In this document: positions 3,768 through 43,095 of the stretch, in pieces | Layout of the letters: each line of letters starts with the position of its first letter | Position numbering within the stretch: position 1 is the stretch's first letter | Source: Alphaproteobacteria bacterium | GTDB lineage: Bacteria > Pseudomonadota > Alphaproteobacteria > Rs-D84 | DNA: 64,000 nt | Direction of reading: 5' to 3' | NCBI GenBank assembly: GCA_017463185.1 | Contig: JAFTPS010000003.1 | Coordinates: forward strand, 27,113 to 91,112 | The notes under the pieces: generated by a model | Seen by the model: the letters and a program-made list of their open reading frames with translations, nothing else | Told to the model about the DNA's origin: nothing | Database searches by the model: none | Made by a program: the position numbers and the translations under genes

Positions 3768-3906
3768 AATGTGGGGAATTTTTGTAAAAAAGTCCTTTGC
3801 CACCGATGGGGCAGGAAAAATCCCGCATTGCGGGATTGGTTGTTTTTGCTTAAATGCCATAAGGTCACTTGCTTTTTGTTGGCAAATAATTATAATAGTG
3901 TGCATT

Positions 3907-3983
3907 GCACCCGTGGCTTAACTGGATAGAGCATCGCCCTCCGAAGGCGGGGATTGCGCGTTCGAATCGCGCCGGGTGCGCCA
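3907..3983 (+). tRNA. tRNA-Arg (anticodon CCG)
   Basis: 77 nt cloverleaf: acceptor GCACCCG/CGGGTGC, anticodon stem TCGCC/GGCGG with loop CTCCGAA, T-arm GCGCG-TTCGAAT-CGCGC, discriminator G + encoded CCA. Confidence 0.8.
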
Positions 3984-4016
3984 TACTTCGCCAAGGCTTC
4001 GTATGGCGCGGCCACA
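3984..4016. repeat. conserved tRNA 3'-flank motif (acttcgc..gcttcgtatggcgcRgccaca), second copy at 38817-38859 after tRNA-Gly
   Basis: tacttcgccaaggcttcgtatggcgcggccaca after tRNA-Arg vs cacttcgcgtctgcgacgcttcgtatggcgcagccaca after tRNA-Gly. Confidence 0.4.
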
Positions 4017-4130
4017 ATCAGACCTTGATTTTTAGGGTGATTTATGGTATAATATTGACCGTGGATGCAGACAGACTGCGTCCGTTTTTTTATTTAAACA
4101 ACTGGTGACATAATGAAAAGGATTTTTTAT

Positions 4131-4628
4131 ATGTCACGACAAATTCAAATACGACGCGGAACAACCAGTGAACATGAAACATTTACCGGTGCAATTGGTG
4201 AAATCACAATGGATACGGATGCCAAGACCCTGCGGGTGCACGACGGGGAAACGGTGGGTGGCGTGCCGTTGGCGCGCGCCGACAGTGTGCCGGATATGAG
4301 TGGTGCGGACTATGTTGTTGCCTGGCAATCGCCAAGTGCAGAAAATAACTATACCTGGTATCGTAAATATAAATCCGGCTGGGTTGAACAAGGGGGATAT
4401 ACAAACAGCAGTACGGTCACCCTGCCCCTGGCTATGGCGGATACGCAATACAATATCCAGATTACCGGTGATGCAAAGTCAACCAATAACAATGTGTACA
4501 TTTTTGGGTGTCAAAGTCGTACGACAACCGGCTTTTCTATGCTGGGGAATGTTGTAAACGGCAGCAGCCAATCGTCAACCGCCAATGGCGCACAACGCTA
4601 TTGGTTTGTGTGTGGGTTTTCCGCATAA
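4131..4628 (+). CDS. phage tail-fibre-like protein with Mtd-N-like N-terminal domain
   Basis: N-terminus MSRQIQIRRGTTSEHETFTGAIGEITMDTDAKTLRVHDGETVGGVPLA closely matches the conserved N-terminal domain of Bordetella phage Mtd-type receptor-binding proteins (..QFRGGTTAQHATFTGAAREITVDTDKNTVVVHDGATAGGFPLA..); RBS aaagga before ATG 4131 (track start 4113 also possible). Confidence 0.5.
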   Translation: MSRQIQIRRGTTSEHETFTGAIGEITMDTDAKTLRVHDGETVGGVPLARADSVPDMSGADYVVAWQSPSAENNYTWYRKYKSGWVEQGGYTNSSTVTLPLAMADTQYNIQITGDAKSTNNNVYIFGCQSRTTTGFSMLGNVVNGSSQSSTANGAQRYWFVCGFSA

Positions 4629-4653
4629 AACTGGGCTTTCTTAGCCCAGTTTT
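4627..4653. terminator. bidirectional intrinsic terminator
   Basis: aaaactgggctttcttagcccagtttt between convergent genes. Confidence 0.6.
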
Positions 4654-6379: not shown

Positions 6380-7311
6380 TATATATTTTCTGCCTTTCGG
6401 AAAGATATTTTCAAAACAGGTATTTTATCAAAGATATAGGCTTTATAATTTTGAACAGAACGCAGGTTTTGATGATATATAGTACACAATGGAATTGATA
6501 AAAATGTAAAGCGAAAACATTTCTTATAATCAAAGCGTCGTGGGCTGTTATCCAGTGTAATATTATAACGATTGGCATTTGCAAAAACGGCATTTAGAAA
6601 ATCTGTATTTTGTGCATATGGAATTAGGTATTGGGTACCCTTTATGCGGCCTAAAGATGCTTTTTTAATGAAAGGAATTCCCTTTTTTAATGTTTCTAGT
6701 GGGTTGGCATAAATGATAAATCCAGCATCATTGCAACGGCTGTCTGAGTATGCGTATGATTTATAGCCGCGCTGTATTATAATACGCGATAGACGTATTT
6801 CGTATTTAAGAACAATGTTATCCTTGTCGTCTTGACGTTTTATATCGTTCATAAAATCATCAAAGAAATTTGATTGAAATATTTTTTGTGAGATTCCAAC
6901 AAACCAAGACTGAATATGTAATGGGATTATTTCGTCCGAATTACTGACCATACCAGTAAAATCCACGCCGCGGGATTCCAGGTCTTTTAATATTGGGCTT
7001 ATGTCATACAGTGGCCCCAGGACGGAATCATTTACCAAATACACCCAATCATAGTTTTCCAATATTTTGTTATCGCGGGCGTATTGATATGCGCGCTTGT
7101 ATGAACCAAAGTCATATTCCCCGTGGCGCGTCGCGGCGGCGTACAGCACATTTGGAATGCTTTTTATCTTGGCCAACTCGTTATCCGTTGTGTCGTTGTC
7201 CATTACAACAACTAAATCGCCCAGTCTTGATAATTCGCCCAGATAATATGTTAGCGTATCATCAACTGTGCCGTCGCGATCGTATGCAGCAAACAAAAAC
7301 AGACGTTTCAT
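6379..7311 (-). CDS. rhamnan-synthesis protein F (RgpF)-like glycosyltransferase
   Basis: N-term LFLFAAYDRDGTVDD...VVVMDNDTTD and overall pattern resemble RgpF family (PF05045-like); operonic with previous gene. Confidence 0.45.
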   Translation of the reverse strand: MKRLFLFAAYDRDGTVDDTLTYYLGELSRLGDLVVVMDNDTTDNELAKIKSIPNVLYAAATRHGEYDFGSYKRAYQYARDNKILENYDWVYLVNDSVLGPLYDISPILKDLESRGVDFTGMVSNSDEIIPLHIQSWFVGISQKIFQSNFFDDFMNDIKRQDDKDNIVLKYEIRLSRIIIQRGYKSYAYSDSRCNDAGFIIYANPLETLKKGIPFIKKASLGRIKGTQYLIPYAQNTDFLNAVFANANRYNITLDNSPRRFDYKKCFRFTFLSIPLCTIYHQNLRSVQNYKAYIFDKIPVLKISFRKAENI

Positions 7312-11397: not shown

Positions 11398-13161
11398 TTG
11401 GCAATGAAACAATATATTTTACCTCTTCGTGATTTGGTGGTGCATCCGGGGCTGACTGTGCCGGTGTACATTGATAATCCTGTGTCTGTATCGTGCCTGA
11501 AAGGGGCCGCGGCGGCGGACCGCCGTATTGTCTTGGTGCCACAGCACAGTTGGACCTATCCGACCACGCCCGACGACATTTACAATGTTGGCACGGTTGG
11601 CGACATTATCCAAGTTTTGCACATGCCCGATGGGGCGGTACATGCAATTGTTTGCACAACCGCGGCGGTCACGCTGGGGAATATAGAAGTGACAGATGGC
11701 CTGTTTACGGCGGACGCCACACCAATTGAAATTGCGACCGATGAAACCGCGCCGGAAACAATTGCGTTGCGTGATATGATTGCGGAAAATGTCCAGGCCA
11801 TGTCGTCGGTGCGTAAATTCAAAATGGATAAATTGCGCAGTGTGGTAAATAACTATCCCCTGCCCGCGTTTGTGGATTCTGTGGTTCAAATGATGGACAT
11901 TGATACCGATAATGCATTAAAGATTTTATGCGCGCCGTCATGGCGGGACAAATTGATTCTGTTGTTGGAACAGATTAAATTGATGGGTGAAACCGCTAAA
12001 ATAGAAGATTCTATAAATCGTCGTATTCACCAGCAAATGGAAAACGGCCGACGCGAAGCTATTTTACAGGAAAAAATGCGTGCCCTGCAAAAGGAAATGG
12101 GTGAAGACAGCGAGGAAATGGATTCCGAAAATATTCGCAAGCGGATTGTAAAATCGTCTATGCCGACCGAGGCCAAAGAAAAAGCAATGAGCGAATGGAA
12201 GCGTATGCGGTCGTTGTCGCCTATGTCAAATGAGGGCGGATTATTAAAAACATATTTAGACGAATTGTTGGCTATGCCATGGGGTAAAATGGACACAATT
12301 CCAATTGATTTGAATGTGGCGCGAAATGTTTTAGATTCCGAGCATTCCGGAATGACTGGCGTTAAAGAACGAATTTTGGAACACATTGCCGTTATGAAAA
12401 AAACTGGCGGCAACCAGGGCAGTATTTTATGTTTTGTTGGCGCACCGGGTGTGGGTAAGACTTCGCTGGGTAAATCAATTGCTGCGGCGTTGGGACGCAA
12501 GTATCAGCGAATTTCCCTGGGCGGTATTTCTGACGAGGCGCATTTCCGTGGTCATCGCAAGACCTATATTGGCGCACAGACTGGGCGTATTATGGATGCG
12601 TTAAAGCGTTGCAAAACAAACAATCCCGTGATTGTTCTGGATGAAATTGATAAAATGGGCCGCGATTGGCGTGGCGACCCGGAAAGTGCCCTGTTGGAAA
12701 TTCTGGACCCAGAACAGAACAAGACTTTCCGCGACCATTATTTAGAGGTGGATTTTGACCTGTCCAATGTGTTGTTTATTGCGACTGCAAACAGTCTGAA
12801 TTTATCCAATGCATTAAAGGACCGTATGGAAATTATTGAAATTCCGGGCTATTCAATTGATGATAAGGTTAAAATTGCACGTGAACATCTGATTGCGCGG
12901 GCAGCCCGTGATACTGGGTGGAATCCGGATGATATTGTAATCTTTGACGATGCAATTCGTCATATAATTCAAAACTATACATCCGAACAGGGGGTGCGTG
13001 AATTGCAACGTGAACTGACCGCGATTTTGCGTCGTGCATTGCTGGAAAACGATTGTGCGGATGTACGGACTGAATTTACCCCGGCCAAGATTGATGAATT
13101 GTTGTCGGTGCGTAAATCGGCCGGATTTTCCAAGAAAATTGGCTTTGGGGTACGGTTATGA
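11398..13161 (+). CDS. Lon-like ATPase: Lon N-domain + AAA+ module, no S16 protease domain
   Basis: LPLRDLVVHPGLTVPVYI (Lon N), Walker A GAPGVGKTSLGKSIA, Walker B VIVLDEIDKM, sensor/arginine finger regions align with E. coli Lon 1-585; ORF stops (..KIGFGVRL*) exactly where the protease domain would start and tsaB begins 4 nt earlier. Confidence 0.7.
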   Translation: MAMKQYILPLRDLVVHPGLTVPVYIDNPVSVSCLKGAAAADRRIVLVPQHSWTYPTTPDDIYNVGTVGDIIQVLHMPDGAVHAIVCTTAAVTLGNIEVTDGLFTADATPIEIATDETAPETIALRDMIAENVQAMSSVRKFKMDKLRSVVNNYPLPAFVDSVVQMMDIDTDNALKILCAPSWRDKLILLLEQIKLMGETAKIEDSINRRIHQQMENGRREAILQEKMRALQKEMGEDSEEMDSENIRKRIVKSSMPTEAKEKAMSEWKRMRSLSPMSNEGGLLKTYLDELLAMPWGKMDTIPIDLNVARNVLDSEHSGMTGVKERILEHIAVMKKTGGNQGSILCFVGAPGVGKTSLGKSIAAALGRKYQRISLGGISDEAHFRGHRKTYIGAQTGRIMDALKRCKTNNPVIVLDEIDKMGRDWRGDPESALLEILDPEQNKTFRDHYLEVDFDLSNVLFIATANSLNLSNALKDRMEIIEIPGYSIDDKVKIAREHLIARAARDTGWNPDDIVIFDDAIRHIIQNYTSEQGVRELQRELTAILRRALLENDCADVRTEFTPAKIDELLSVRKSAGFSKKIGFGVRL

Positions 13162-14013: not shown

Positions 14014-14389
14014 TCTGGCAAATCTTCATAAACTTTGTTTCCCGGACAAGCCCTGGGCGGCGGAAGAGTTCGCGGATTTAAAAAAATCTGGATGTGAAAT
14101 TATCGCCAGTCAGAATGGCTTTATTGTTTATCGCGCTGTTGCTGATGAAGCAGAAATAATTACCATAGGGGTTCATCCAGAGGCTCGGCGGGGCGGAATT
14201 GCGGTCGCAATGCTTGGGATTATGGAAGCGGACTTGAAAAAACAGGGTGTGAAACATATATTTCTTGAGGTGGCGGCGGACAATTCGCCGGCCCGTGCGC
14301 TGTACGAACAGAATGGGTTTGTAAAAATTGGCGTGCGCCCAAAATATTATGACGGCATAGATGCCGTTATGATGAGGAAAGATATATGA
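14003..14389 (+). CDS. rimI: ribosomal-protein-alanine N-acetyltransferase (GNAT)
   Basis: GNAT motifs ..ITIGVHPEARRGGIAVAML.. and ..NSPARALYEQNGF..; classic tsaB-rimI adjacency. Confidence 0.65.
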   Translation: MLDNLANLHKLCFPDKPWAAEEFADLKKSGCEIIASQNGFIVYRAVADEAEIITIGVHPEARRGGIAVAMLGIMEADLKKQGVKHIFLEVAADNSPARALYEQNGFVKIGVRPKYYDGIDAVMMRKDI

Positions 14390-15468
14390 ACATAAAATAT
14401 ATTCCCAGCTCAGCCGGCGTTATCAAGGCTGTGGCACGTACAGATGAAAATATTTATGGCACGCAAGAGGTGGATAAAATCGTCCCGGGTGTTCCGGCGA
14501 TTGTTGTACTGGGTGGGGAATTGACCTATGTCCCGAGATTTGCTAATCATTATATAAAACAGATAAAACGTGTGTTGGCGGAAAATAATGTTAGCGGAAC
14601 AGATATATACTCGGTCTTTTATGAATTCGGGTCACGTGATGCGGCGTTGGAACGCATTCAAATGTTTCAAGCGGCACGACACAAAGTACAAAATTCAAAT
14701 CGTCCAGCAGATGTTGTTGCCTGCAAGATGCAACATATGCAGTCTACCGAGCCAACCGCAAATTATATAAAGCAATTGTATAAAGCTTTAATTCATCCAA
14801 TACTAGTATTGGACACCGCAGGTGTCCAACCGAATGTGGTGGCAACATTACAAAATGCATCAAAGTTGCGATTTTATTGCCATTCGCACGGCGCAGCTGT
14901 GGCACGAATGCTGGGCAATCTGATGCGAGACGAAATGTTAAATATGGGGTTCAAAGCATCTGATATAAAACAAATACAGCAAAGTATTGTGGTTATTCAG
15001 CACGGTCCAATTGTACCACTAGAATATCCGTATTTTACAACATTATCATTTATGTCGGCTTCGGATACCCGAATGAACTTTCATAACGCTTTTTCAAAAT
15101 ATGCATCAGAAAACAGCGAAAATATATACCCCAGTTATTTTCCCCAAGCGGGGGCGCATTTGTTTGTTGCGGGACAAATAAGCCGGAATTTTGGGAACGA
15201 ACACGATAATATCGGATTGGCAAAAGAAGAATTTCAAACCCTGACCGATGATGGCCGCATTATATTTGCCGCAGAAAGAAATGCGATTACAAACGCTGTA
15301 AAAACGGCTATTGCGGGTGTAAAAGTGCCATCTGTACGTGAATTAGTCAGTGGCCCAGGGGTTGATTTTAATGAACTGGTTTGTAATGGCGAATGGTTTT
15401 ATAAATTGATGATGACGGAACTTAAACAGTTGCGTCAACAAAATCTAAAACACGTGAATCAAAAATAA
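14386..15468 (+). CDS. hypothetical protein (possible alpha/beta-hydrolase-like CHSHG elbow)
   Basis: 360-aa ORF overlapping rimI stop by 4 nt; no firm family assignment. Confidence 0.35.
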   Translation: MNIKYIPSSAGVIKAVARTDENIYGTQEVDKIVPGVPAIVVLGGELTYVPRFANHYIKQIKRVLAENNVSGTDIYSVFYEFGSRDAALERIQMFQAARHKVQNSNRPADVVACKMQHMQSTEPTANYIKQLYKALIHPILVLDTAGVQPNVVATLQNASKLRFYCHSHGAAVARMLGNLMRDEMLNMGFKASDIKQIQQSIVVIQHGPIVPLEYPYFTTLSFMSASDTRMNFHNAFSKYASENSENIYPSYFPQAGAHLFVAGQISRNFGNEHDNIGLAKEEFQTLTDDGRIIFAAERNAITNAVKTAIAGVKVPSVRELVSGPGVDFNELVCNGEWFYKLMMTELKQLRQQNLKHVNQK

Positions 15469-16696
15469 CATCGCGTGGGCGCAGTGGTGCGGCTATGTGC
15501 ATATCCGATGCACGACGGGTACGCGACAGGGCCACGTATGTTTGACCGTGGGCGAACGCCCCACGTGAAATATCCACCACAACCGCATCCAGGGTTTTGC
15601 CCTGGGCCTTGTGTATGGTCATTGCATAACCTAAACTTAGCGGGAATTGTTTGTATGAACCGACCTCTGATTCCACCAGGCGGTCGTTTTCATCGCGCGA
15701 GTATTCTATCTTTTCCCATTTATCGGGCTTTACGGAAACCAATTCACGCGAATCCGACAATAATTGTACCACAATTTCACGCGCCCCCAGGCTTTTTATT
15801 ATTCCCATTGAGCCATTATGCCATTTATCGCCATTTTTTACAAAAACAACCAATGCGCCAACTTTTAATGTCAGGCTTAGTGGTGCGGGGACATCGCGTT
15901 CAGAAAAATTACCCGACAAGACACCATTGTATATAACCTCGGGCTCTGGAATCTGGGCCAGTCGCGATGCATTTATACGTTCGGCCACGGCACGAAACGG
16001 CGTGATAAGAACCGCGTTCGCGCGACGGGCCGCGTCATCTATGCGGCACGTATTGAAAAAATCCAGTGCGCCCGCATCATTTCCCCGCAATCGCACCAAA
16101 TTTTCCAACAGTGGCCCATCATTCTGGCGATAAACCAAATCAAAATTGTATTTTATAAAATCCGCGCGTTTGTACGCATTGCTGTCAAAAAAATATGCGT
16201 TTGGATGTCCGTATTCAGATGTATAGTACTGGGTTGCTTCGCGTGTGATAACGGGTGGCAATTGGAACAAATCACCAATTGCAACAATTTGGATTCCGCC
16301 AAACGGTTCATTGTTGCGTCGCGCCTGACGGGCCAGTATATCAATCGCATCCAGCAAATCAGGCGCAACCATTGATATTTCATCAATAATTAAAACATCG
16401 GTTGCATTCAGGATATTGCGGGTTTTAGCCTTTAATTTCAAAAATTCGGGCAGGATAAAATCACGCGGTTGAATCTGGAACAACGAATGAATCGTCTGTC
16501 CCCCTACATTCAGGGCCGAAACCGCCGTCGGGCAAGCACAAACTATGCGTTTTTTTGATGCTGCTTTCAGGTAATTTACAAATGTAGACTTTCCCGTTCC
16601 CGCCGGCCCCAGAATCAACAGATTTGAATTTGTGCGTTCCACGGCGTTAAACGCCGCCATTTGTGTTTCGCTTAAAATTTGGACCAATTCGCTCAT
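15422..16696 (-). CDS. Pif1/RecD-family ATP-dependent DNA helicase
   Basis: Walker A LILGPAGTGKST, Walker B LIIDEISMV, GDLFQLPPV motif; start MSELVQIL at 16696 chosen because longer track ORF would run through the tRNA-Met gene. Confidence 0.7.
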   Translation of the reverse strand: MSELVQILSETQMAAFNAVERTNSNLLILGPAGTGKSTFVNYLKAASKKRIVCACPTAVSALNVGGQTIHSLFQIQPRDFILPEFLKLKAKTRNILNATDVLIIDEISMVAPDLLDAIDILARQARRNNEPFGGIQIVAIGDLFQLPPVITREATQYYTSEYGHPNAYFFDSNAYKRADFIKYNFDLVYRQNDGPLLENLVRLRGNDAGALDFFNTCRIDDAARRANAVLITPFRAVAERINASRLAQIPEPEVIYNGVLSGNFSERDVPAPLSLTLKVGALVVFVKNGDKWHNGSMGIIKSLGAREIVVQLLSDSRELVSVKPDKWEKIEYSRDENDRLVESEVGSYKQFPLSLGYAMTIHKAQGKTLDAVVVDISRGAFAHGQTYVALSRTRRASDMHIAAPLRPRDVIFDSRVLDFVDATV

Positions 16697-16782
16697 AAAA
16701 TCTATGATTACATAAAAAGTTGATAAAGATAATAAAAAATTATCTTGCACGAAAATATAAAAGTATATATAATGTGCGCCGT

Positions 16783-16858
16783 GGGTTAGTAGCTCAGTGG
16801 TTAGAGCGGAGCGCTCATAACGCTTTGGTCGTGGGTTCAAGTCCTACCTAACCCACCA
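16783..16858 (+). tRNA. tRNA-Met (anticodon CAT; elongator or Ile-lysidine type)
   Basis: GGGTTAG...CTAACCC acceptor, anticodon stem AGCG/CGCT with loop CTCATAA, T-loop GGTTCAAGTCC, CCA encoded. Confidence 0.8.
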
Positions 16859-16863: not shown

Positions 16864-16893
16864 AAAAATCCGTCCCCTGGGCGGTTTTTTATT
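16864..16893 (+). terminator. intrinsic terminator after tRNA-Met
   Basis: aaaaatccgtcccctgggcggtttttt. Confidence 0.55.
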
Positions 16894-17026
16894 TATAAAT
16901 CCCGTATAGCCACTTATTTTTCTGTGTATGTTCATAAAAATACATGATTGATAAATATTCATATTATTTTTCCCTTGCGTAGGGTGCGGTAAATTTTCTA
17001 CCATTATTTACAAAAGAGAGGAAGTC

Positions 17027-20000
17027 ATGGAAAAAAAGCGCAGTTTCCTGGGATTTTTGGCAAGTTTATTTTTGGTATTTTTTACCGCCAATGCGTTCGC
17101 GGCGGGCTATTCGTGTCCTACATATAAGTTGTACACATCGTGTAGCGAGAATTATTTCTTGGCTGATACCGATGTGTCTGACAGTGCTACTTCGGCGGGA
17201 AATGCATGTTCGGCCTGTCCTGGAAATTCTACAAACACTGTTTCAACTGCGACATCCTGTACCTGTAAAACGGGGTATAGTGTTGGCGGTGCAACCACAA
17301 CGACTGGTACGGCGTGTTCGGCCAATACATACACCGTTACTTATAACAGTAACAAGCCAAGTGGTGCTTCTGGCACAATTAGTGGCAGCACAGCGAACAG
17401 CACTCATACATATGGCACGGCCAAGGCATTGACAACAAACGGGTACAGTTTGACCGGGTGGACGTTTGCAGGCTGGAATACCAAGGCGGACGGTACAGGT
17501 ACATCTTATGCAAATGGCGCAAGTGTAACGAACCTGACCAGTACTTATAATGGAACGGTCACGCTGTATGCGAAATGGACTGTGAATACATTGACCATAA
17601 ACTATAACACCAGCAGTGCAACCAGTGGTACGCCATCTGTGTCACAACAGACATGTTCTTATGACGGAGCATGTACAGCGGCAACCCAGGGTACTATGGT
17701 TAAAACCAAGATGGTGTTCCTTGGTTGGACCAAGACATCTGGTGGAACAACCGTTGATTATGCGGCGGATGCATCTATCAAGAACATAATCAGCAGTGGT
17801 TCAATAACACTGTATGCAGTGTGGAAAACGCCGACATGTTCTGCGACCAAGGGTACTGCGACGTTAAAGAGTGTAACCAACAACACGCCAGTGTGTACTA
17901 TTACCTGTTCTACTGGGTACACTCAGGGCGGTGGCACGAATGCAACTGGGACGTTTGAAGTAAACGGTTCTGCCGGTGCAACCAGTGCAAGTGGCACATG
18001 TAAAGCGATTACATTTACAGTTGCATACACCAAAGACCCAAGTTCTGCAACGGGTACGGTTCCAAGTAATCAGACATGTACGTATGATGGCACATGTACT
18101 GCGGCGACGAATCCATTCTCTCATACGGGCTATATGTTTAACAAGTGGTCTTGTACCGCCAGCAGTGGCAGTTGCGCCGCCAGCACATATGCATCGGGTG
18201 ATAGTCTGAAAAATGCAACATCTGTTGCAGGTGCGACGATTACTCTGAAATCTACTTGGGATGCGAACACCATTACCCTGAACTGGGCAAATGGCGGACA
18301 TGGTACAGCGCCGACCAGTCCCGCATCGTGTAAGTATGACAGCACATTCACCATGCCGGCCGCGATGACCGCAACGGGTTATACATTTAATAAGTGGTCT
18401 GTGAATGGCAAAACGTTCAATGCGGGTACAACCGGTGTTGCGTGTACCAGTGCCAATCTGGGGGTAAGCAGTGGAGCCGTCACAATTACAGGTACCTGGA
18501 CCGCAAACAACTATTCCATTAGCCTGGACAATGCAAGCGCGACAAATAATGGGACAGCGACCATTTACACCACATATAAAACAAATGTGTATTTGGACGA
18601 CGCGCGCAGCAAGGCTATGACAGCATCCGCGAATGCTATCACAGAACCGACGCGCGCGTACACGGTCACATATGATGGCAATGGTGGTTCGGTGTCCGCA
18701 ACCAGTGCGACGGCAACATATACATTCAATGGTTATTACAATACGTCCAGCAATGGCACACAATACATTAACTCAAACGGGAATATCACATCCGATGGTT
18801 TGAACGCAGCTAAGGATGTGGATGATAATACAACAACCTGGTACGCACAATGGACCAGTAAATCTGTGACATTGCCAACACCGACCAGAACGGGCTATAC
18901 ATTTAAAGGCTGGGCAGAATCCTCAACCGCGACCGGTGGAGATACGGGTTCATATACCCCGACCAAGAATGTCACATTATATGCAATCTGGTCGCAGAAT
19001 ACCTATGCTGTCGCCTATTCCTGTGGTGATGGAGCTGGGACCGCCCCCAGTTCCACGACCGCGACATATGACAACTCATTTACACCGGCGGCTAACACAT
19101 GCACACGCAGTGGATATAACTTTGCCGGATGGACGGTAAGTGGCACAAGTGATACCAAGACCGCAGGTTCGGCATTTACTTGGACATATACTGAGGGCAA
19201 AACATTTACCGCCAAATGGACAGCCGAGGGCGAGGCGGAAATCAACTATGTCACAAATGGTGGCACAATCAATGGTTCGTACATGGCGGCGTGTAATGTT
19301 GAAACAGCAACATTTAGTTTGCCGACAGATGTCACAAAACCGGGTTATACATTTAATGGATGGTACACCGCATCCACTGGTGGGACCAAGGTGACAAGTG
19401 TTGTAAAGGGCACATGCACATCCGCGCTGACATACTATGCACAATGGACCGCATGCGACAGCACAACCGCGGGTGCTTGTAATTGTACCAGCAGTCAATA
19501 TCCAGACAATGGGACATGTACAAATTGTTCGCACAGCTGTGCCAGCGTCACTGGATATACACTGGGTACATATAATGTATGTGAGGCGGAAACGGATTTA
19601 TGGTGTTATCGCAATTGTACAACCACTGATATTCCAAATTCTACCGGTGTGTCTGGGATTGTTACTAAGGGCGGAAAAATTTTATGTGCAGCAACGACGT
19701 GTGCAGATGATTTCTATATATCAGGCAGTGGCTGTCAGTCATGTCCAGAAAATGCGACATGCGGGGGCGAAGCCGAATGGTCATGTGATGAGGGATATAA
19801 AAAGACCGCCAATGGCCTGGGGTGTGAACCAAATACATACACCGTCACATTGAATGCGAATGGTGGTACGGGTGGGACTGCGTCCGTCACGGCAACTTAT
19901 AACAGCCTGTTGCAAACGGCGACTATGCCAGAGCGCGACAACTATAACTTCCTGGGGTACTATGATACGGATGCAACCACGGGTGGCAATCAGTATTATG

Positions 20001-23000
20001 ACGAGAGTGGTAAGCCGGTAAAGGCATGGACCACGGCGGCAAATGGCACATTGTATGCGCGTTGGGAATTGGGTGTATTTCCATGCACCGCGGGCAAAGC
20101 AGCCGACGGAACAACATGTACGCCGGGATATTACTGTCCGGGTGGAGATGTGACCGCGGGCAATGAATCCAGCGAAACCGCAGGATGTGAAATCAAATGT
20201 CCAAGTGCATCGGGCAAAACGATTAGTTCTGTTTCCGGCGCGACACTGAAAACCCAGTGTACAGCCGCGGGGGATGTAGATATTACAAATGAATCCACGA
20301 CAGTTGTGTCGGGGCGTGGTACCGAAACATGTAGTTGGAACGAAAGTACGGACTCATATTCACTCTCTTGCAATATCGTGCCGACATACTGCCAGGGTGG
20401 ATATTACAGACCGGCTGCGAACTCGCCATTCTGTAATGAGGTTGGCTATGGCTATTATCGTGGCGATAGCGAAGCCGTGACAACACGCAATGCGTGTTCG
20501 GCCCTGTCGGGTGCGTCGGGCGCGACAACATCAACCACGACATCCAGTGCGGCAACAGCATGTTTTAATATGTGTTTGCAGACGGTGACCACAGATGGCA
20601 ACGGGGTATTAAATCCGGTCAATGAAAACGAATTTTATAATGCAACGACCAAGACTATTGCGGCCTGCTCTTATACACTAAGTTGTAATACTGGGTATCG
20701 GGCGGCAAGTGATACAACATGCGAACCAGATGTTTTTGCGATTACACTGGACCACAATGGTGGCACGGGCAGCGTGAATACAATATATCTGAAATATAAC
20801 ACCGGATGGTATTCGGACAGCAATGCCACCAGCAAAATTACCAAGGTCACTTTGCCGACCCTGGCGGGCCAGACATGTTCGGGATATTTAAGTGGCAGCA
20901 CCGTTGTGATTGGTTCTACGGGTAATTTGACAACGAATTACACATTATTCTCGGACGACGCCACAATTAAAGCATCGTATGCCGATAATCCGTCAATCTC
21001 ATGTGCGGCGGGAACATATTATGCCGGTACGGGGACATCATGTACCAACTGTCCGGCGGGCAGTTATTGCGCGGGTGTTGAGGCAATTCAAGACACCGGT
21101 ACGGCCAGTGGTATTGCGACCTGTGAGGCGTTGAATGGCACATATACGGCCGCTGTGGATAAAAATGGTAATAAATTGACGGTGATGATTAGTTCGGCGA
21201 CAAAATCCGATGCGGCGGCGGACTGTTATGCGACAAATGTTGCCTATGCACCCGACCAATACACAGCGGGCAGTCAGACTTGTCAGTATGACGCAGGTAC
21301 TAAATCATATACCGCAAATTGCAGTGCGAAAACCGTTATTACCTGTGCGGGTGGTTATGCCCTGGCCAGCGGAACCGCCACAGTTTGCACGATTGTTGAT
21401 TTGGGATATTACAGCCCGGATAAAGAAACCTCTGCAACACGGTGTCCAGAAAATTCGGATACGGGTACACGCGGCACAACCCAGGAAAAGGGGCGCACCA
21501 GTGCCGAGGCCTGTATAATGGATGACCTGTGGTATGAAAATGATACCAGCGGTCAAAGACGGCAGTGTTTTTATTCGGCCGAGTCGGGCAAATATGACCG
21601 AAACTGTCCACAATCAACGATTGTGACCTGTATCGCGGGGTATTATTACGATGGTGTACAAACTGACAATTGCGTGCCGGTTGGGAATGGGTATTGGAGT
21701 CCGGCTCAATCCGAATGCTCGGGCGAATCCGCGCAGCCAACCGTTGCAGGTTGCTCAACCGAACGCAATTATTGTGGCACAGGTATAGATACCAAGGATG
21801 CCGACGGTAATATCACAAATACCGCGTCCAGCATCACATATTGCGTGGGCCTGTGCGAGGCGGGATATTACTGCGTCCCCGGCGAAGATGCACAAAAATG
21901 CCCCGCCGACTATCCAGACTCTCAGCCCGGCGCAACCAGTATTGATGAGTGTTATGTGGAAGCATCATGTTCGTGTATAGAAGATTCTTCTGTGTGTCCA
22001 GATAATGCTAATAGATGCACATATCGGACTTCTACTGTGACGGGGGTTTATTATTATGCAGACCCAGCCACTTGTGTCGCTAATCCAGAAGACCCAGAAA
22101 GCTCATATTGTCAGATTAACTCTTCATACTGCGCCGATGATTTTTATAGTAGATATTATACTATAACGGGTGAAGAGGTGTCTCGCAGTGAAACGAGTCG
22201 TTTTAGTTCAACCTGTGATAGTTGTTCAACGGTTTCTGCAGATTATCCATATGCATATTCTTATGAAAGCTATAAAGGTGTTAATGGGTGTTGGGCTTAC
22301 TGCGACTTTTACTGTGACGACCCAATTTGTCCACTAGACTCTGAAGGATATTGCGAATATGATAAATATATCATTTCCAAAGAAGGTAAGCTGTATTATC
22401 CGGGCGATGGTGAATGTACCGCGGCTTCCTCTTTGCAAGCAACTTGTTCCGTTACGAAAATTGGCTGTAATACAGGATATGAGTTTAATCCGAATGCCGC
22501 TGATTCAGATAGTATGTGCGAGTTGATTGTTGCTAAGGTCACGTTGAAAGTAAATGGTGGGGATGGGACAGATTCTGTGGTGTACCAGAAGTATGCAACA
22601 GGATGGTATTCAGATGAAGACGCGACAAGTTCTGTTTCCAGGCTTACAACACCAACGCGCACAAACTATTCGTTCTTGGGTTATTCCGCGGACGAAGAAG
22701 GAACAAATATTGTCCTGGCGGCGGATGGCATTTTGCCAGAGCCAGAATTGTTCACAGCCGATACGACATTGTATGCACAGTGGTCGCAGAATCTGGTAAC
22801 CTGTGAAGCGGGCAAGTACTATGATAGTGGCGTGCTGACCGAGTGTGTTGCACCATATTACTGCCCAGGTGAAGGAAATGTGGTTGTTGGTGGTACAGGC
22901 TGCCGTGAAACATGTCCAAATGGCGGGACCATTGATGAAGATGGCGCATCCAGCATCAACAGATGCCACAAGATTATCACGGATTCGTCAAAGAATTTCC

Positions 23001-26000
23001 CGAATGGTACGGCGCAATGGGATTGCTATTACACCAGCGGGACCGGCGATAATGCCCTGTACAGTACAAGTTGCACGGTTGTACCAAGAACCTGTAATCC
23101 TGGGTACTATCACGAGGGTAATAATGCTGTCGGATGTACAGTTGTGGAAGATAAATATTACAGTCCCGCCAATAAGTTGGACAAATATCTGTGTGAAGGT
23201 GGTGACGGGTCGGTACTGCCACGTGATAGCCAGGAAAATTGCTATGTATCCTGTGATTTGACCGCGGCGGATGTGCCACACAGCAAAACCGTGACACCCG
23301 ACAGCGAACAGGCCATGTATTCTGGTAGTGCATATGAAACATGTACATATACATTGACCTGTGACCCAGGATATACTGCGGTACCGGGTGCAAATCCACA
23401 ATGTAAGGCAAATGAATATACAATTACATTGGATAAAAACAAGGGCACGGGCAATATTGCGGACAGTGTACAATGCACATTTGACAGTGGGGCATGCGCC
23501 CTGCCCGCGACAAGTTCGCTGGTACGACCGGGATACAATGTAATTGCCAAGTGGTGTAAAAAGGACGACGGCACCGGTGATTGCTATGGCGCGGGGAACA
23601 CGATTACGGACAACATATCGGCAACGGGTACGGATGTGACGCTGTATGCGGTATGGCAACCGGCAGTATTCAAAATCATACTGAGTGCATCGGATGCAAC
23701 GGCAAATGGCGCACAGGGACCAGTGTATCTGAAATATGCAACGGGTTGGTATTCCGATGAATCGGCAAACACCCCGATAACCAGTTTGGGTACAAACCTG
23801 CCCCAAAAGACGGGATATGAATTTGCGGGCTATAAACTGGGCGACATTAGTATCATTGACGCAAATGGCGCATTGCAGACGAATGAAAATGCATTGAGCG
23901 CAACAACAGTGGATGCAACCGCAACGGCGGTGTGGTCGGCGGGCTTTACATCCTGTGCGGCGGGGACATACTATTCCGGAAATGGCAGTGTATGTTTGAC
24001 CTGTACGGAAAATAACTGGTGCCCAGGTGGCGACAAATTCGCAACCGATTCCGGCACGCCGGATGGACTGAATGCGTGTCCGAATGGCGGTTTGTCGGCG
24101 GGTGGCGAAAGCGCAACCAATGTTGGCGTGTGTTATAAGGAACAGTTGCCTTATACATCGGCCAGCACACACGCGACGGGAACCCAGACATGCTATTATG
24201 GTACAGATGATTATAATGCAAACTGTAAAGACATTGTGGTCACGGCATGTGGGGCGGGATACTATTATGTGTCAGGAACCGATTGCTCAGAGGTTGACGT
24301 AGACCATTATAGTGGCGCGGACGATATGAAACGCTATGCGTGTCCAAACGGTGGTGGCACGGGCAGTCTGACAACGGCCAGCGTGATAACTGAATGCTTT
24401 AAGACGGTTGACTTTACATCCGCGTCGGGCAATGGTACTGGAACCCAGGTATGTACATATACCAGTGGCGAAGGTGCGGATGCCAGATACGCAACCGAAT
24501 GTCGCGAACAGTATGTCAGTCATTGTAAGGGCGGTTATTACAAGACAACCGATGATGCGATTGACTGCGACAAGGTGGGCAAGAATAATTACAGCCCAGA
24601 GGGATCTGTAGCACGTGAGAAATGTCCAGATGGCGGGTTGACCGAATCCGAAACAGCGAATGCACCGACATTCTGTTATAAAACGGATACGCCGTATTCC
24701 AGCGAACACGGTCGGGGTATTCAGTTGTGTTATTACAACGCGGAAACAACCGTGTATGATACCGGGTGCAGCACAATCATAATGCATGAATGCGACGCAG
24801 GGTATTATTGGAAAAATGGCGACAAAGACTGTGAACCAGTTGACTATGGATTCTATGGACCAGTTGCAGATGTAAATAACAGCAACCGTCCAACCACACG
24901 CGATATGTGTCCGGATAACGGACTGACCAAAACAGACACCAGTGCGGATATATCAGAATGCTATCGCACGGATGTGGAATGCACGGTCAACAATGGTGTG
25001 GGTGAAGCGACCTGTAATTATGACGCGGATGCGGGCGCATATTCTGCGGAATGCGGCACATGTGCGGTGACGGGTTGTGGTGAAGGCTATTATTCAACCG
25101 ACGGCACAAACTGTGTTGAATGCCCAGCGGGCAGTATCTGCGACGGTAGCGATGACGATGGCGATGGAATCCCAGATGCCAAGACTTGTGCAAGCCTGAC
25201 CGGTGGTACGCATACCAAGTCTGACAGCGGTATAAGCGATGTAAACTATTGCTATACAGACTGTCCGATTGTTGAGAATGCAAACAGTGTGACGGGACGC
25301 GATTACTATGGCGCGACGGACACTTGCAAGATCAATTCCTGCCGGCCGGGGTATAAGTTGCAGAATTTCCAGTGTGTGGCGTGTGCCGAGGGCGAAATTT
25401 GCGATGGCTCGGTCAAAGACGAAGACGGCGACGGGAACCAGGACGAAGAACCTAAGACCTGTGCCGAATTGACCGGCGGCACGCACACAATGTCAGACGC
25501 AAAATCGGATAGCATAAACGACTGTTATCATATGTGCGAGGCATATGAACTGGATGGTGGCGAGGCCGTGCCAGTCAGTGAACGCGCCCAGTATCCAGAT
25601 GACTGCGAATTTGAAGGCATATCCGATACCGGAAATCCGTGCGATATTGTTGATGGACGCTGCGTTGAAACATCGTGCAATTCAAATTTTGAATTGATAA
25701 ACGGGTCGTGCAAGCCATGTAATCGTGAACACGCAATTACATATAAGCCAACGGGGAACTGTGTTGTGGAATCTTGCGCGACGGGGTATCATCCGAATGG
25801 CCAGGCCTGTGAAGATGATGTTGTGTCGTGCAGTGCACCGAATGCAATATCCGCGACGCGGGTATGGAATACCAAAAAGAACGCGTTTGGCGAATGTATT
25901 ATCACCGAATGCGACGACGGTTATCATTTGGCGGCAAATGCATGCCAGGCCGACGAACAACCGTGCGAGGTTGAACATGGTACCGGTATGCGCGAATGGA

Positions 26001-26326
26001 ACCATAAAACAAATACCTGGGGGGCGTGCATTGCCACCAGTTGCGAACCGGGATATACCAGCGACCGTTCTTTGACCAATGAACTGTCCAAACAGTGCGG
26101 ACGCTGCAACAATATGTACAGCGCGTTGGGAGAACTGGCCGCCAGCAGTTATGTAAGCGAATGTGAAATCGCATCGTGTATGTATCAGGGTGAAAAGTAC
26201 ACATTGGAAAACAATGAATGTATTCTGATATGTGATACGCGCAGCGATGAAACTGGCAGCCAAAAATGGAACGCATCGCGTGGCAAGTGTGAACGAACCT
26301 GTGCGGATGGGTATATTGAGTGGTAA
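17027..26326 (+). CDS. giant secreted surface/adhesin-like protein (3099 aa): signal peptide, Listeria-Bacteroides (Flg_new) repeats, ephrin-receptor/GCC2-like Cys modules, EGF-like Cys-rich C-terminus
   Basis: Signal peptide MEKKRSFLGFLASLFLVFFTANAFA; >10 repeats of ..GYTFxGWNTxxDGTGTxYxxGxxV..LYAxW; recurring CxAGxYYxGxGxxCxxCPxGxYCxG modules; DGDG Ca-binding-like stretches; RBS agagaggaag; terminator follows. Confidence 0.8.
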   Translation: MEKKRSFLGFLASLFLVFFTANAFAAGYSCPTYKLYTSCSENYFLADTDVSDSATSAGNACSACPGNSTNTVSTATSCTCKTGYSVGGATTTTGTACSANTYTVTYNSNKPSGASGTISGSTANSTHTYGTAKALTTNGYSLTGWTFAGWNTKADGTGTSYANGASVTNLTSTYNGTVTLYAKWTVNTLTINYNTSSATSGTPSVSQQTCSYDGACTAATQGTMVKTKMVFLGWTKTSGGTTVDYAADASIKNIISSGSITLYAVWKTPTCSATKGTATLKSVTNNTPVCTITCSTGYTQGGGTNATGTFEVNGSAGATSASGTCKAITFTVAYTKDPSSATGTVPSNQTCTYDGTCTAATNPFSHTGYMFNKWSCTASSGSCAASTYASGDSLKNATSVAGATITLKSTWDANTITLNWANGGHGTAPTSPASCKYDSTFTMPAAMTATGYTFNKWSVNGKTFNAGTTGVACTSANLGVSSGAVTITGTWTANNYSISLDNASATNNGTATIYTTYKTNVYLDDARSKAMTASANAITEPTRAYTVTYDGNGGSVSATSATATYTFNGYYNTSSNGTQYINSNGNITSDGLNAAKDVDDNTTTWYAQWTSKSVTLPTPTRTGYTFKGWAESSTATGGDTGSYTPTKNVTLYAIWSQNTYAVAYSCGDGAGTAPSSTTATYDNSFTPAANTCTRSGYNFAGWTVSGTSDTKTAGSAFTWTYTEGKTFTAKWTAEGEAEINYVTNGGTINGSYMAACNVETATFSLPTDVTKPGYTFNGWYTASTGGTKVTSVVKGTCTSALTYYAQWTACDSTTAGACNCTSSQYPDNGTCTNCSHSCASVTGYTLGTYNVCEAETDLWCYRNCTTTDIPNSTGVSGIVTKGGKILCAATTCADDFYISGSGCQSCPENATCGGEAEWSCDEGYKKTANGLGCEPNTYTVTLNANGGTGGTASVTATYNSLLQTATMPERDNYNFLGYYDTDATTGGNQYYDESGKPVKAWTTAANGTLYARWELGVFPCTAGKAADGTTCTPGYYCPGGDVTAGNESSETAGCEIKCPSASGKTISSVSGATLKTQCTAAGDVDITNESTTVVSGRGTETCSWNESTDSYSLSCNIVPTYCQGGYYRPAANSPFCNEVGYGYYRGDSEAVTTRNACSALSGASGATTSTTTSSAATACFNMCLQTVTTDGNGVLNPVNENEFYNATTKTIAACSYTLSCNTGYRAASDTTCEPDVFAITLDHNGGTGSVNTIYLKYNTGWYSDSNATSKITKVTLPTLAGQTCSGYLSGSTVVIGSTGNLTTNYTLFSDDATIKASYADNPSISCAAGTYYAGTGTSCTNCPAGSYCAGVEAIQDTGTASGIATCEALNGTYTAAVDKNGNKLTVMISSATKSDAAADCYATNVAYAPDQYTAGSQTCQYDAGTKSYTANCSAKTVITCAGGYALASGTATVCTIVDLGYYSPDKETSATRCPENSDTGTRGTTQEKGRTSAEACIMDDLWYENDTSGQRRQCFYSAESGKYDRNCPQSTIVTCIAGYYYDGVQTDNCVPVGNGYWSPAQSECSGESAQPTVAGCSTERNYCGTGIDTKDADGNITNTASSITYCVGLCEAGYYCVPGEDAQKCPADYPDSQPGATSIDECYVEASCSCIEDSSVCPDNANRCTYRTSTVTGVYYYADPATCVANPEDPESSYCQINSSYCADDFYSRYYTITGEEVSRSETSRFSSTCDSCSTVSADYPYAYSYESYKGVNGCWAYCDFYCDDPICPLDSEGYCEYDKYIISKEGKLYYPGDGECTAASSLQATCSVTKIGCNTGYEFNPNAADSDSMCELIVAKVTLKVNGGDGTDSVVYQKYATGWYSDEDATSSVSRLTTPTRTNYSFLGYSADEEGTNIVLAADGILPEPELFTADTTLYAQWSQNLVTCEAGKYYDSGVLTECVAPYYCPGEGNVVVGGTGCRETCPNGGTIDEDGASSINRCHKIITDSSKNFPNGTAQWDCYYTSGTGDNALYSTSCTVVPRTCNPGYYHEGNNAVGCTVVEDKYYSPANKLDKYLCEGGDGSVLPRDSQENCYVSCDLTAADVPHSKTVTPDSEQAMYSGSAYETCTYTLTCDPGYTAVPGANPQCKANEYTITLDKNKGTGNIADSVQCTFDSGACALPATSSLVRPGYNVIAKWCKKDDGTGDCYGAGNTITDNISATGTDVTLYAVWQPAVFKIILSASDATANGAQGPVYLKYATGWYSDESANTPITSLGTNLPQKTGYEFAGYKLGDISIIDANGALQTNENALSATTVDATATAVWSAGFTSCAAGTYYSGNGSVCLTCTENNWCPGGDKFATDSGTPDGLNACPNGGLSAGGESATNVGVCYKEQLPYTSASTHATGTQTCYYGTDDYNANCKDIVVTACGAGYYYVSGTDCSEVDVDHYSGADDMKRYACPNGGGTGSLTTASVITECFKTVDFTSASGNGTGTQVCTYTSGEGADARYATECREQYVSHCKGGYYKTTDDAIDCDKVGKNNYSPEGSVAREKCPDGGLTESETANAPTFCYKTDTPYSSEHGRGIQLCYYNAETTVYDTGCSTIIMHECDAGYYWKNGDKDCEPVDYGFYGPVADVNNSNRPTTRDMCPDNGLTKTDTSADISECYRTDVECTVNNGVGEATCNYDADAGAYSAECGTCAVTGCGEGYYSTDGTNCVECPAGSICDGSDDDGDGIPDAKTCASLTGGTHTKSDSGISDVNYCYTDCPIVENANSVTGRDYYGATDTCKINSCRPGYKLQNFQCVACAEGEICDGSVKDEDGDGNQDEEPKTCAELTGGTHTMSDAKSDSINDCYHMCEAYELDGGEAVPVSERAQYPDDCEFEGISDTGNPCDIVDGRCVETSCNSNFELINGSCKPCNREHAITYKPTGNCVVESCATGYHPNGQACEDDVVSCSAPNAISATRVWNTKKNAFGECIITECDDGYHLAANACQADEQPCEVEHGTGMREWNHKTNTWGACIATSCEPGYTSDRSLTNELSKQCGRCNNMYSALGELAASSYVSECEIASCMYQGEKYTLENNECILICDTRSDETGSQKWNASRGKCERTCADGYIEW

Positions 26327-26502: not shown

Positions 26503-26547
26503 GGCGGTAATGACAAAAACGCAATGCGTTTTTGTAAAAAAAACACC
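26503..26547. repeat. dispersed hairpin-containing repeat (ggtaatgacaaaaaYgcaatgcRtttttgtaaaaaa), second copy 59682-59719
   Basis: Near-identical ~40-nt sequence at two intergenic sites, each adjacent to additional palindromes. Confidence 0.5.
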
Positions 26548-26583
26548 CCCTCCCGGGGGCGGGTAAAATCCGCATGGATGAGT

Positions 26584-27159
26584 TTAATTGCTATAATAGC
26601 AATTACTGGTGAATGTGTATGTGCCGGTAGTGTCGGACATAGATGAATTTGCCGGTATATAGCACGATGTGATGGCGGTACTGCCCGCGGCACTGGTGCC
26701 ATAAACGCCACCAGATGATGGGCAACGGGTACAGGTTGTGCCGTCACCATAATATCCCGCGCGACACTGATATTCACAGGCCGGAATTATCAGTTCATCG
26801 TTGCAACGTATTTGTTGCGTGTTTCCATAATCGGTCCAGGTGTTTTCTGGGCACAGATCTGGACAGGTTGGTGTTATTGGTTCTATTGGCGACAATGTTC
26901 TTGTACAGGTGCCGATTGTATAACTTTCGGTGCTGGATATAGTAATGGTTTCCGTGCTGCGGGTATAACCACTGGCACAGGTGTTGCAGTCCGTGTATGT
27001 GGCGGTGCCACAGTTGATAACGCGGTTAACATCACTGCATTCAGTTGTAGAGCCGCCGGTTGATTCAATAAAACACATGATTATGGTATCTAGGGCCCAT
27101 GCATTATGCGACAGACCAATCGCCCCCAAGACGATTGGGATAAAGATTTTTTGATTCAT
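26584..27159 (-). CDS. secreted cysteine-rich protein
   Basis: 191 aa, signal peptide MNQKIFIPIVLGAIGLSHNAWA, Cys/Thr-rich; RBS aggaga; preceded by conserved leader L2. Confidence 0.5.
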   Translation of the reverse strand: MNQKIFIPIVLGAIGLSHNAWALDTIIMCFIESTGGSTTECSDVNRVINCGTATYTDCNTCASGYTRSTETITISSTESYTIGTCTRTLSPIEPITPTCPDLCPENTWTDYGNTQQIRCNDELIIPACEYQCRAGYYGDGTTCTRCPSSGGVYGTSAAGSTAITSCYIPANSSMSDTTGTYTFTSNCYYSN

Positions 27160-43092: not shown

Positions 43093-43095
43093 TGA

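Follow-up and report, generated by a model that had tools for sequence, protein, structure and literature searches.

Surface proteins of the InlB B-repeat or Flg_new type, known from Listeria, Bacteroides, Firmicutes and spirochaetes, cysteine-rich domains (CRDs) of the PF07699 and tumour necrosis factor receptor (TNFR) type, and the giant adhesins of Gram-negative bacteria are the closest described systems to the protein treated here. It is encoded by a chromosomal gene of 3099 codons, hereafter the giant gene, in a 64,000-nt stretch of DNA (the window) from a Candidatus Enterousia-like gut alphaproteobacterium of the order Rs-D84 (GenBank assembly GCA_017463185.1, contig JAFTPS010000003.1, positions 27,113 to 91,112 of the forward strand). 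The giant protein is intact, under selection and modular, and it has a Sec signal peptide. It belongs to a large family, undescribed so far and spread across the lineage, whose ~95-aa repeat and C-terminal domain are new; the fold class and the surface repeat from which the family is built are known. Regarding its function, a secreted surface attachment fibre with swappable variable segments is proposed, with a probability of about 0.5.

The giant protein has 13 copies of the ~70-aa repeat of the InlB B-repeat/Flg_new proteins, and its homologs are named 'InlB B-repeat-containing protein' by NCBI. However, Flg_new is a minority component of it, with single repeats as spacers between Cys-rich blocks, and Flg_new proteins elsewhere, which combine the repeat with Flg_new_2 and assorted Pfam families, have not been reported with 95-aa disulfide-rich arrays or with this C-terminal domain. 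Compared with the CRDs of EphA2/EphB2, the TNFRs, ELAPOR1 and CaSR, the giant protein scores below every curated threshold, most of its units replace the second Cys of the CxxC (C-x-E-V-G-x-x-Y-Y-S-P), and each unit adds a ~40-aa stretch of three long β-strands. In addition, unlike the ephrin and TNF receptors, it is bacterial, lineage-specific and not membrane-receptor-like. The mastigoneme protein Mst1 of Chlamydomonas (Protein Data Bank (PDB) codes 8tx1/8wa2) is eukaryotic, lacks Flg_new repeats and the C-terminal domain, and is reached by sequence at an insignificant E of 0.47 only. DUF7631 (PF24634), a family without known function for which no literature was found, covers only part of the 95-aa unit: the 'head' repeat CxAGxYYxGxGxxCxxCxxxxWCPGG... 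of the giant protein gives 12.2 and 15.1 bits, below the threshold of 27, and the member P0008, with precomputed PF24634 matches, has 62-aa repeats that match positions 1-60 of the repeat profile.

The giant Gram-negative adhesins (RTX/LapA/MpIBP of the type I secretion system, T1SS; autotransporters of the type V secretion system, T5SS) resemble the giant protein in size, repetitive stalk-like build and presumed surface role. As a rule they contain few Cys and depend on a β-barrel or a T1SS signal at the C-terminus, whereas the giant protein has a Sec signal peptide and 6% Cys and lacks RTX repeats and a barrel. It also differs from sortase-anchored (LPXTG) proteins by having neither the C-terminal motif nor the hydrophobic segment, and its host is taken as diderm because the window contains the gene of a Slam outer-membrane protein (41752-43092). 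Literature searches under DUF7631, Flg_new with cysteine-rich, Enterousia, Rs-D84 with adhesin, and GCC2_GCC3 in bacteria yielded no description of the family, and the giant protein is not mentioned in the account of Enterousia cited below (PMC12306168).

Architecture and fold of the giant protein

According to the list of open reading frames (ORFs) and the translation, the giant gene has a single, uninterrupted reading frame. The mature protein, as computed from its sequence, has a mass of 322 kDa and a pI of 4.3; it is very acidic and rich in Thr and Ser (14% Thr), with 10% Gly, 47 N-x-S/T sequons and 185 Cys (6.0%), the latter mostly beyond aa 800. Its N-terminus, MEKKRSFLGFLASLFLVFFTANAFA followed by AGY, presents the n-, h- and c-regions of a signal peptide of signal peptidase I (SPase I), and this is the sole segment with a 19-residue Kyte-Doolittle mean above 1.6. 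Motif and hydropathy scans found no lipobox, LPXTG motif or C-terminal hydrophobic or transmembrane (TM) segment.

The whole protein was scanned with Pfam and NCBIfam, nine sub-segments were rescanned against Pfam at E≤10, and repeat profiles (hidden Markov models, HMMs) were built iteratively on the giant protein and its first homologs. The whole-protein scan returned two families and no others, both above their curated thresholds: Flg_new (PF09479; 164.9 bits against 27, in 8 stretches) and TIGR02543 (List_Bact_rpt; 79.1 bits against 20.95). With the iterated HMMs, 13 Flg_new-like repeats were found, 8 within aa 115-808 and 5 beyond, as single or paired spacers (aa 946-1013, 1245-1317, 1846-1920, 2139-2210 and 2227-2304), together with 13 copies of a ~95-aa six-Cys repeat (aa 1020-1224, 1326-1611, 1926-2117 and 2310-2865), two 'tail' modules, and irregular Cys-rich stretches at aa 26-114, 809-945 and 1612-1845. 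The modules are arranged as follows:

17027..26326 (+): giant gene, complete, 3099 aa (ORF list and translation)
17027..17101 (+): Sec (SPase I) signal peptide, aa 1-25, cleavage site between AFA and AG
17159..18496 (+): N-terminal hypervariable cassette, aa 45-490, spanning Flg_new repeats 1-4 and the Cys-rich segment at the N-terminus
17369..19450 (+): N-terminal Flg_new array, 8 repeats with short Cys-containing spacers, aa 115-808 (PF09479, TIGR02543, own HMM)
19451..19861 (+): irregular Cys-rich linker, aa 809-945 (Cys density; EGF-type matches sub-threshold only)
20084..20728 (+): 95-aa units 1-2 and a 'tail' module, aa 1020-1234 (own HMMs), flanked by the Flg_new repeats at aa 946-1013 and 1245-1317
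21002..21859 (+): 95-aa units 3-5, aa 1326-1611, last unit partial (own HMM)
21947..22741 (+): central hypervariable cassette, aa 1641-1905, with most of one Flg_new repeat and a Cys-rich region that is unique
22802..23404 (+): 95-aa units 6-7 and a 'tail' module, aa 1926-2126 (own HMMs)
23441-23938 (+): two Flg_new repeats, aa 2139-2304 (own HMM)
23954..25621 (+): 95-aa units 8-13, aa 2310-2865, of which units 9-10 (aa 2408-2588, 24248-24790) served for the structure model
25151..25177 (+): DDDGDGIPD, a DxDxDGxxD motif within a loop of unit 12 (regular expression)
25418-25444 (+): second DxDxDGxxD copy, DEDGDGNQD, in unit 13 (regular expression)
25622..26323 (+): family-defining C-terminal Cys-rich domain, aa 2866-3099, ending ...CADGYIEW-COOH

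The consensus of the 95-aa repeat (alignment A1) is C-x2-G-Y-Y-x(5-9)-C-x-x-V-G-x-x-Y-Y-S-P-x(7)-C-P-x-G-G-x(12)-C-Y-K-x(10)-G-x-G-x-Q-x-C-x-Y-x(10)-Y-x3-C, with six invariant Cys, and the unit that opens each block is of a 'head' type with the motif C-x2-C-P-x-G-x-Y-C. Two consecutive units (aa 2408-2588) were modelled by AlphaFold2 on a 22-row alignment of unit pairs, with a mean pLDDT of 96.5 and a pTM of 0.79. In each unit, short hairpins lead into three long β-strands; the third extends as far as the first Cys of the following unit, and the pLDDT stays at 94-98 across the junction; because of this reach and the high confidence at the junction, the model suggests that the repeats form a rigid, extended array.

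Comparison of this model with known folds places the unit among the Cys-rich folds of the TNFR/Eph-CRD type, a likeness at the fold level with 10-18% identity, and the cysteine-rich domains of CaSR and T1R are among the similar folds. In Foldseek, ELAPOR1 (probability 0.97) and Mst1 (0.94) rank first, none of the matches being at E≤1e-3, and a sequence profile search of the PDB with the repeat returned the same two proteins at E 0.02-0.47 only. The link by sequence is transitive: among 1.84 billion representative proteins searched exhaustively, profile A1 matches four (P0091, P0111, P0119 and P0124) at E 1e-18 to 1e-25, which carry PF07699 at 44-116 bits, above threshold, and align in register with positions 1-54 of the repeat, with per-domain E down to 1e-9. 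Because these intermediates carry PF07699, the N-terminal half of the unit is placed in the Ephrin_rec_like/GCC2_GCC3-TNFR superfamily as a divergent member, while the C-terminal ~40 residues are a lineage-specific addition.

Within the family, conservation is highest over the C-terminal ~235 residues: in alignment A2 the mean column identity is 53%, and 48 columns are invariant, 22 of them Cys. This domain was modelled as all β-hairpins with a pLDDT of 88; it has no match in Pfam or NCBIfam and no relative in the PDB by sequence, and the best Foldseek probability, 0.25, is not credible. The possibility that the C-terminus is merely a further set of 95-aa units was rejected, as hhalign gives a probability of 2% against the repeat. 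The domain occurs in 84 of the 155 collected sequences (cluster representatives), always at the extreme C-terminus; 80 of these end exactly in ...G-[YF]-x-x-W, and the other 4 carry 1-7 extra residues. A lipoprotein-like protein of another lineage (P0010, 1174 aa, from Logan) has 13 tandem ~45-aa Cys-rich repeats, with no precomputed Pfam match, and their pattern C-x2-G-[FY]-H...C...NG-x-G-x-Q-x-W...C matches repeats inside this domain; therefore, the C-terminal sub-module exists outside Rs-D84.

An earlier sequence-only reading of the window had described one 9.3-kb ORF with a signal peptide and no evident C-terminal anchor or sortase motif, and these points hold: the frame of 3099 aa is uninterrupted, its only hydrophobic segment is the signal peptide, and there is no LPXTG motif, C-terminal TM segment or β-barrel. 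The frameshift or assembly split that it had named as a refutation is not the case, as the ORF is intact and has a collinear ortholog of 2969 aa. Its Flg_new repeats are real, at 164.9 bits for PF09479 and 79 bits for TIGR02543, but 8 rather than more than ten lie in the first ~800 aa, and the remaining 5 of the 13 sit among the Cys-rich blocks beyond aa 800. Dozens of Cys-rich modules had been counted from the pattern CxAGxYYxGxGxxCxxCPxGxYC, which is that of the 'head' units; in literal form it occurs once and in relaxed form three times, so the motif was overcounted, yet the order of magnitude is about right if each 95-aa unit, six-Cys and in 13 copies, is taken as two sub-modules. The suggested likeness to GCC2/GCC3 and ephrin receptors is borne out by the fold and by the transitive profile link, but not by direct scores: in the giant protein Ephrin_rec_like (PF07699) has no whole-protein match and at best 14.0 bits in a sub-segment (E 0.045, ~aa 2592-2645) against a threshold of 23.1. 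EGF-like modules are not supported, as the EGF-type Pfam matches all remain sub-threshold (cEGF 12-17 bits against 26.6, EGF_MSP1_1 14 against 27), like those of Sushi (12-16 against 20.7); TNFR_ELAPOR1_6th is also among these hints. The Ca-binding-like DGDGxxD stretches, which were compared with calcium-binding loops of the thrombospondin type-3-like kind, are present as two DxDxDGxxD copies (aa 2709-2717 and 2798-2806), where no calcium-binding family of Pfam was matched; the motif is retained in the homolog P0006 and lost in P0001 and P0002.

A lineage-wide family with variable cassettes

Searching the 1.84 billion representatives exhaustively with profile A1 gave 726 proteins at E≤1e-3, 77 of them at E≤1e-30. 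A word-indexed search of a 5.8e9-protein database with the C-terminal 820 aa gave 11 relatives, a method that under-represents the family. The scan with A2, which covered one genome per GTDB species, yielded 142 C-terminal-domain matches, from which 78 loci were kept; nearly all belong to metagenome-assembled genomes (MAGs) named Candidatus Enterousia, uncultured gut Alphaproteobacteria or 'Rickettsiales', with human cohorts, ruminants and chicken as named sources, and some MAGs have two loci of the family. The gene order in many loci is a lon-like gene, tsaB, an unknown gene of 360 aa, the giant gene, a gene for an HI0933-like flavoprotein and Hydrolase_4; the fullest loci read lon-tsaB-orf14386...giant...HI0933-hydrolase, and most have HI0933 and/or the hydrolase directly downstream. 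Judged from this synteny, the giant gene is a core gene of Candidatus Enterousia (order Rs-D84). The permuted tmRNA found within the window is consistent with an alphaproteobacterium. Enterousia has been described as having genomes of ~0.75-1.0 Mb, without a tricarboxylic acid (TCA) cycle, respiration or standard transporters, and a partner-dependent lifestyle was proposed (PMC12306168). At this genome size, the giant gene takes up ~1% of the genome.

The giant protein combines the features that define the family, namely the signal peptide, Flg_new repeats, 95-aa six-Cys repeats, the terminal ~235-aa Trp-ended domain and the tsaB...HI0933 locus. The 54 complete-looking members have 817-4444 aa (median 2592), with 0-16 Flg_new repeats, 4-24 Cys-rich repeats and 4.1-8.9% Cys, and most of those listed start with a signal peptide of the MGKxRxFLGF type. 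All 12 related loci examined have a long intact ORF, with the C-terminal domain at the end and a signal-peptide-like N-terminus. A 'eukaryotic-like' fusion, as the sequence-only reading had it, is overstated: the modules are a bacterial lineage that has diverged deeply and is conserved at a single syntenic locus in dozens of Enterousia species. The size variation that it considered possible is real between orthologs (817-4444 aa), but not through DNA repeats. The claim that the DNA is highly repetitive internally is not confirmed, as no direct repeat is longer than one of 58 nt with 71% identity, and TRF on the giant gene gave no meaningful tandem repeat, only two trivial 19-nt matches. The repeats appear to be old and diverged, offering no substrate for slippage or frequent unequal recombination.

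The closest relative, P0023 (2969 aa, Logan contig L079), aligns collinearly from end to end, with 176 of the 185 Cys conserved and 88-99% aa identity in the backbone. DNA identity was obtained by blastn against L079, and dS and dN/dS were computed on aa 491-1640, 1906-2865 and 2866-3099. The backbone at aa 491-1643 has 88.7% DNA identity, a dS of 0.28 and a dN/dS of 0.28, and at aa 1911-3099 it has 93.2% identity, a dS of 0.22-0.26 and a dN/dS of 0.05-0.13; the C-terminal domain has the lowest dN/dS of the giant protein, 0.054. Two cassettes interrupt this conservation. At aa 45-490 no blastn similarity to L079 remains save one 245-nt patch at 74%, with flanks at 89-93%, module indels are present, and the nominal dS is ~2.0 against 0.22-0.31 in the backbone, dN/dS not being reliable; no close relative was found in the 5.8e9-protein database, the best matches being 55-56% identical with partial coverage. 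At aa 1641-1905 the identity boundaries against P0023 are sharp, there is no blastn match, and the dS is again nominally ~2.0 with a dN of 0.73 (dN/dS not reliable); in the same 5.8-billion-protein database no relative was found save a weak Flg_new match.

Because synonymous divergence in the cassettes is ~8x that of the flanks, the simplest reading is that they were replaced by old, divergent alleles through recombination, rather than having evolved fast in place. Other species pairs were compared in which the flanking genes are 86-92% identical: similarity is missing at ~aa 55-560 in L008/L009, at ~aa 1570-1880 in L066/L074, and over most of the gene save the N-terminal part and the last 1.1 kb in L005/L006, while L031/L034 and L054/L060 are collinear throughout. 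Variation falls on the irregular Cys-rich segments and the Flg_new repeats, and the conserved frame holds the C-terminal domain and most of the 95-aa arrays. Module counts differ between family members, and allele-like cassettes differ between close relatives.

Proposed function and competing explanations

As an attachment fibre, the giant protein would be exported by Sec, its modules would then be disulfide-bonded in the periplasm, and the displayed form would be a fibre, long and stiff; our estimate of its length from typical domain sizes is ~100 nm or more. The repeat arrays would form the stalk, the conserved C-terminal domain would be the docking end, in contact with the envelope or with a partner for export or anchoring, and the cassettes at aa 45-490 and 1641-1905, apparently swapped for old alleles by recombination, would provide exposed recognition or antigenic surfaces, serving recognition or the evasion of immunity or phages. 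In an organism for which partner-dependence was proposed, the likeliest role would be attachment to the partner cell, host mucus or epithelium. A bolder version, offered only tentatively, is that of the attachment organelle of a genome-reduced, partner-dependent gut alphaproteobacterium, with a disulfide-stapled TNFR/ephrin-type fibre of >100 nm, the Trp-ended domain docking by an undescribed route and the recombining cassettes setting partner or host specificity; by analogy, and no less tentatively, such an organelle might be a bacterial counterpart of the eukaryotic mastigoneme filament protein.

Several points weigh against the attachment fibre. The main one concerns passage across the outer membrane, for which the sequence shows no barrel of the autotransporter type and neither an RTX/T1SS signal nor a lipobox or sortase motif: neither an autotransporter family nor RTX or HemolysinCabind was matched by the giant protein in Pfam or NCBIfam (for the latter two also in the sub-segment scans), and its C-terminal 245 aa were modelled as Cys-rich β-hairpins, not as a β-barrel. 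A secretion or anchor gene was sought beside the giant gene, where the neighbours are housekeeping genes and none was found, and no ligand-binding or lectin domain was recognised in the protein. That it is expressed, lies on the surface, is disulfide-bonded and has the shape of a fibre is all predicted, and the anchored end is assigned from conservation only, so that the C-terminal domain could equally be a functional head. The cassette dS values come from alignments of ~25% identity, which makes their magnitude unreliable. Chimeric metagenome assembly could produce some mosaic pattern in a single pair, but the mosaic recurs in three further pairs, which argues against a chimera.

A surface coat or sheath, resembling an S-layer or a scaffold for a glycocalyx and serving protection or spacing, with the cassettes as an escape from phages or host immunity, is rather unlikely, even if a highly conserved core gene at a syntenic locus, a very acidic, Thr/Ser-rich protein with 47 N-x-S/T sequons, a glycosyltransferase cluster in the same window and a cassette replacement that fits antigenic or phage-receptor variation would all suit it, since the protein has no S-layer or SLH-type domain, the Flg_new proteins seen in the searches are mainly annotated only as generic repeat proteins, and self-assembly is not in evidence. 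The lack of an identifiable outer-membrane translocation signal or partner next to a Sec signal, and the fact that disulfide-rich folded proteins are poor substrates of T1SS and T5SS, speak for a structural or scaffolding protein of the periplasm or envelope that is never surface-exposed. This is quite improbable, as a ~3000-aa fibre of extended modules would not fit across the periplasm, allele-like hypervariable cassettes are typical of exposed proteins, and Flg_new repeats are, by the family description, characteristic of surface proteins.

Swappable cassettes in a giant secreted repeat protein also recall polymorphic toxins or contact-dependent delivery proteins, whose variable parts would be effector modules; however, those proteins vary at the C-terminal tip, where conservation is here at its highest (omega 0.054), the scans of the giant protein and its sub-segments with Pfam and of the whole protein with NCBIfam gave no toxin, immunity, Rhs, CdiA or PT-domain match, and no immunity-like gene is conserved next to the giant gene across the syntenic loci, which makes this explanation very unlikely. 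Just as little credit can be given to a host-mimicking decoy, whose modules would bind TNF-family or ephrin ligands of the host like the CrmE-type decoy receptors of poxviruses: the likeness is at the fold level only, with 10-18% identity, the family is equally present in MAGs from ruminants, birds, humans and termite guts, and the long uniform arrays are as in the structural filament Mst1, not as in receptors with 3-4 CRDs. Finally, apart from its unusual size, nothing suggests that the gene is a product of misassembly or ORF fusion or a pseudogene in decay, and this is extremely improbable considering the collinear ortholog with 88-99% aa identity over the backbone, the purifying selection (backbone dN/dS 0.05-0.28) and the dozens of intact orthologs of 2000-4400 aa with the same N- and C-termini.

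Genomic surroundings and meaning for Enterousia

The neighbours of the giant gene are lon-like, tsaB, GNAT, an unknown cytoplasmic-looking protein, a PIF1-like helicase, HI0933-like, hydrolase and dnaK, and a six-frame profile search found no second copy of the family in the window. The start of the gene is preceded by these features:

16783-16858: tRNA-Met, upstream of the giant gene
16870..16894 (+): intrinsic-terminator-like hairpin after the tRNA-Met
AGAGAGGAAG: purine-rich stretch that finishes 4 nt ahead of the ATG

The giant gene is its own transcription unit, set apart by the hairpin at 16870..16894. Upstream, the lon-like gene (11398-13161, plus strand, 587 aa) encodes the substrate-binding, AAA and lid domains without the S16 protease domain, and tsaB begins at its stop codon. 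As the same compact lon-tsaB order is seen in related loci, e.g. L047 (lon 151-1908, tsaB 1925-2458), the truncation looks lineage-wide. Between the conserved unknown gene (14386-15468) and tRNA-Met sits the PIF1-like helicase ORF (15422-16840, minus strand), with an annotated TTG start that overlaps the tRNA. This ORF is possibly an insertion relative to the syntenic loci, because there the space from the unknown gene to the giant gene looks too short for it. Downstream, a 191-aa ORF (26584-27159, minus strand) is convergent with the giant gene, near a terminator-like hairpin (26544-26561), and has a signal peptide (MNQKIFIPIVLGAIGLSHNAWA, cleaved before LD), many Cys and a CRAGYYGDGTTCTRCP motif. 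It fills a gap of ~1.15 kb, while in syntenic loci the HI0933-like gene starts ~70 bp past the giant gene. This ORF has no tblastn match in any related locus and no Pfam match, and it was rejected as a copy of the family, since it is not detectably homologous by the repeat profiles.

Farther away, the Slam gene (PF04575 and TPR_Slam, 41752-43092, minus strand) lies ~15 kb from the giant gene and has no evident link to the giant protein. Directly upstream of it, a 570-aa protein without a Pfam match (43096-44808, minus strand) may be its cargo, and from the locus at 41752-44808 it follows that this organism of reduced genome has an outer membrane and export of a type XI-like kind. A glycan-synthesis cluster at 98-7311 comprises GT2, GT6, an APH-like kinase, an RgpF-like rhamnan synthesis protein and a TupA-like ATP-grasp fused to a TOD1/MUCI70-like glycosyltransferase, and could bear on surface glycosylation. 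The window also has a type II CRISPR-Cas locus (47071-52208), with Cas9 (972 aa, HNH and RuvC, 49287-52208, minus strand), Cas1 (48319-49233, minus strand) and an array of ~12 units with a 66-bp period (47071-47884). Genes of toxin or defence type adjoin this locus at 40070-46967, namely the HipA kinase (40070-41221, minus strand), Hypoth_Ymh (45133-45810) and Fic/DOC (45909-46967). Mtd_N is the N-terminal domain of the major tropism determinant, a target of phage diversity-generating retroelements (DGRs), and a 171-aa ORF with this domain (4113-4628, plus strand), beside tRNA-Arg (3907-3983), may be a phage or DGR remnant.

Regarding the family as a whole, bacteria use here, on a large scale, Cys-rich modules of the TNFR/ephrin-receptor type, which are usually regarded as eukaryotic extracellular building blocks, and both the 95-aa repeat unit and the C-terminal domain are covered by no curated family or solved structure. 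Enterousia is a widespread uncultured gut lineage for which partner-dependence has been proposed and which has no known contact machinery (PMC12306168). A giant secreted putative fibre with allele-like cassettes, taking up ~1% of the genome and present in many species, is an obvious candidate for that machinery.

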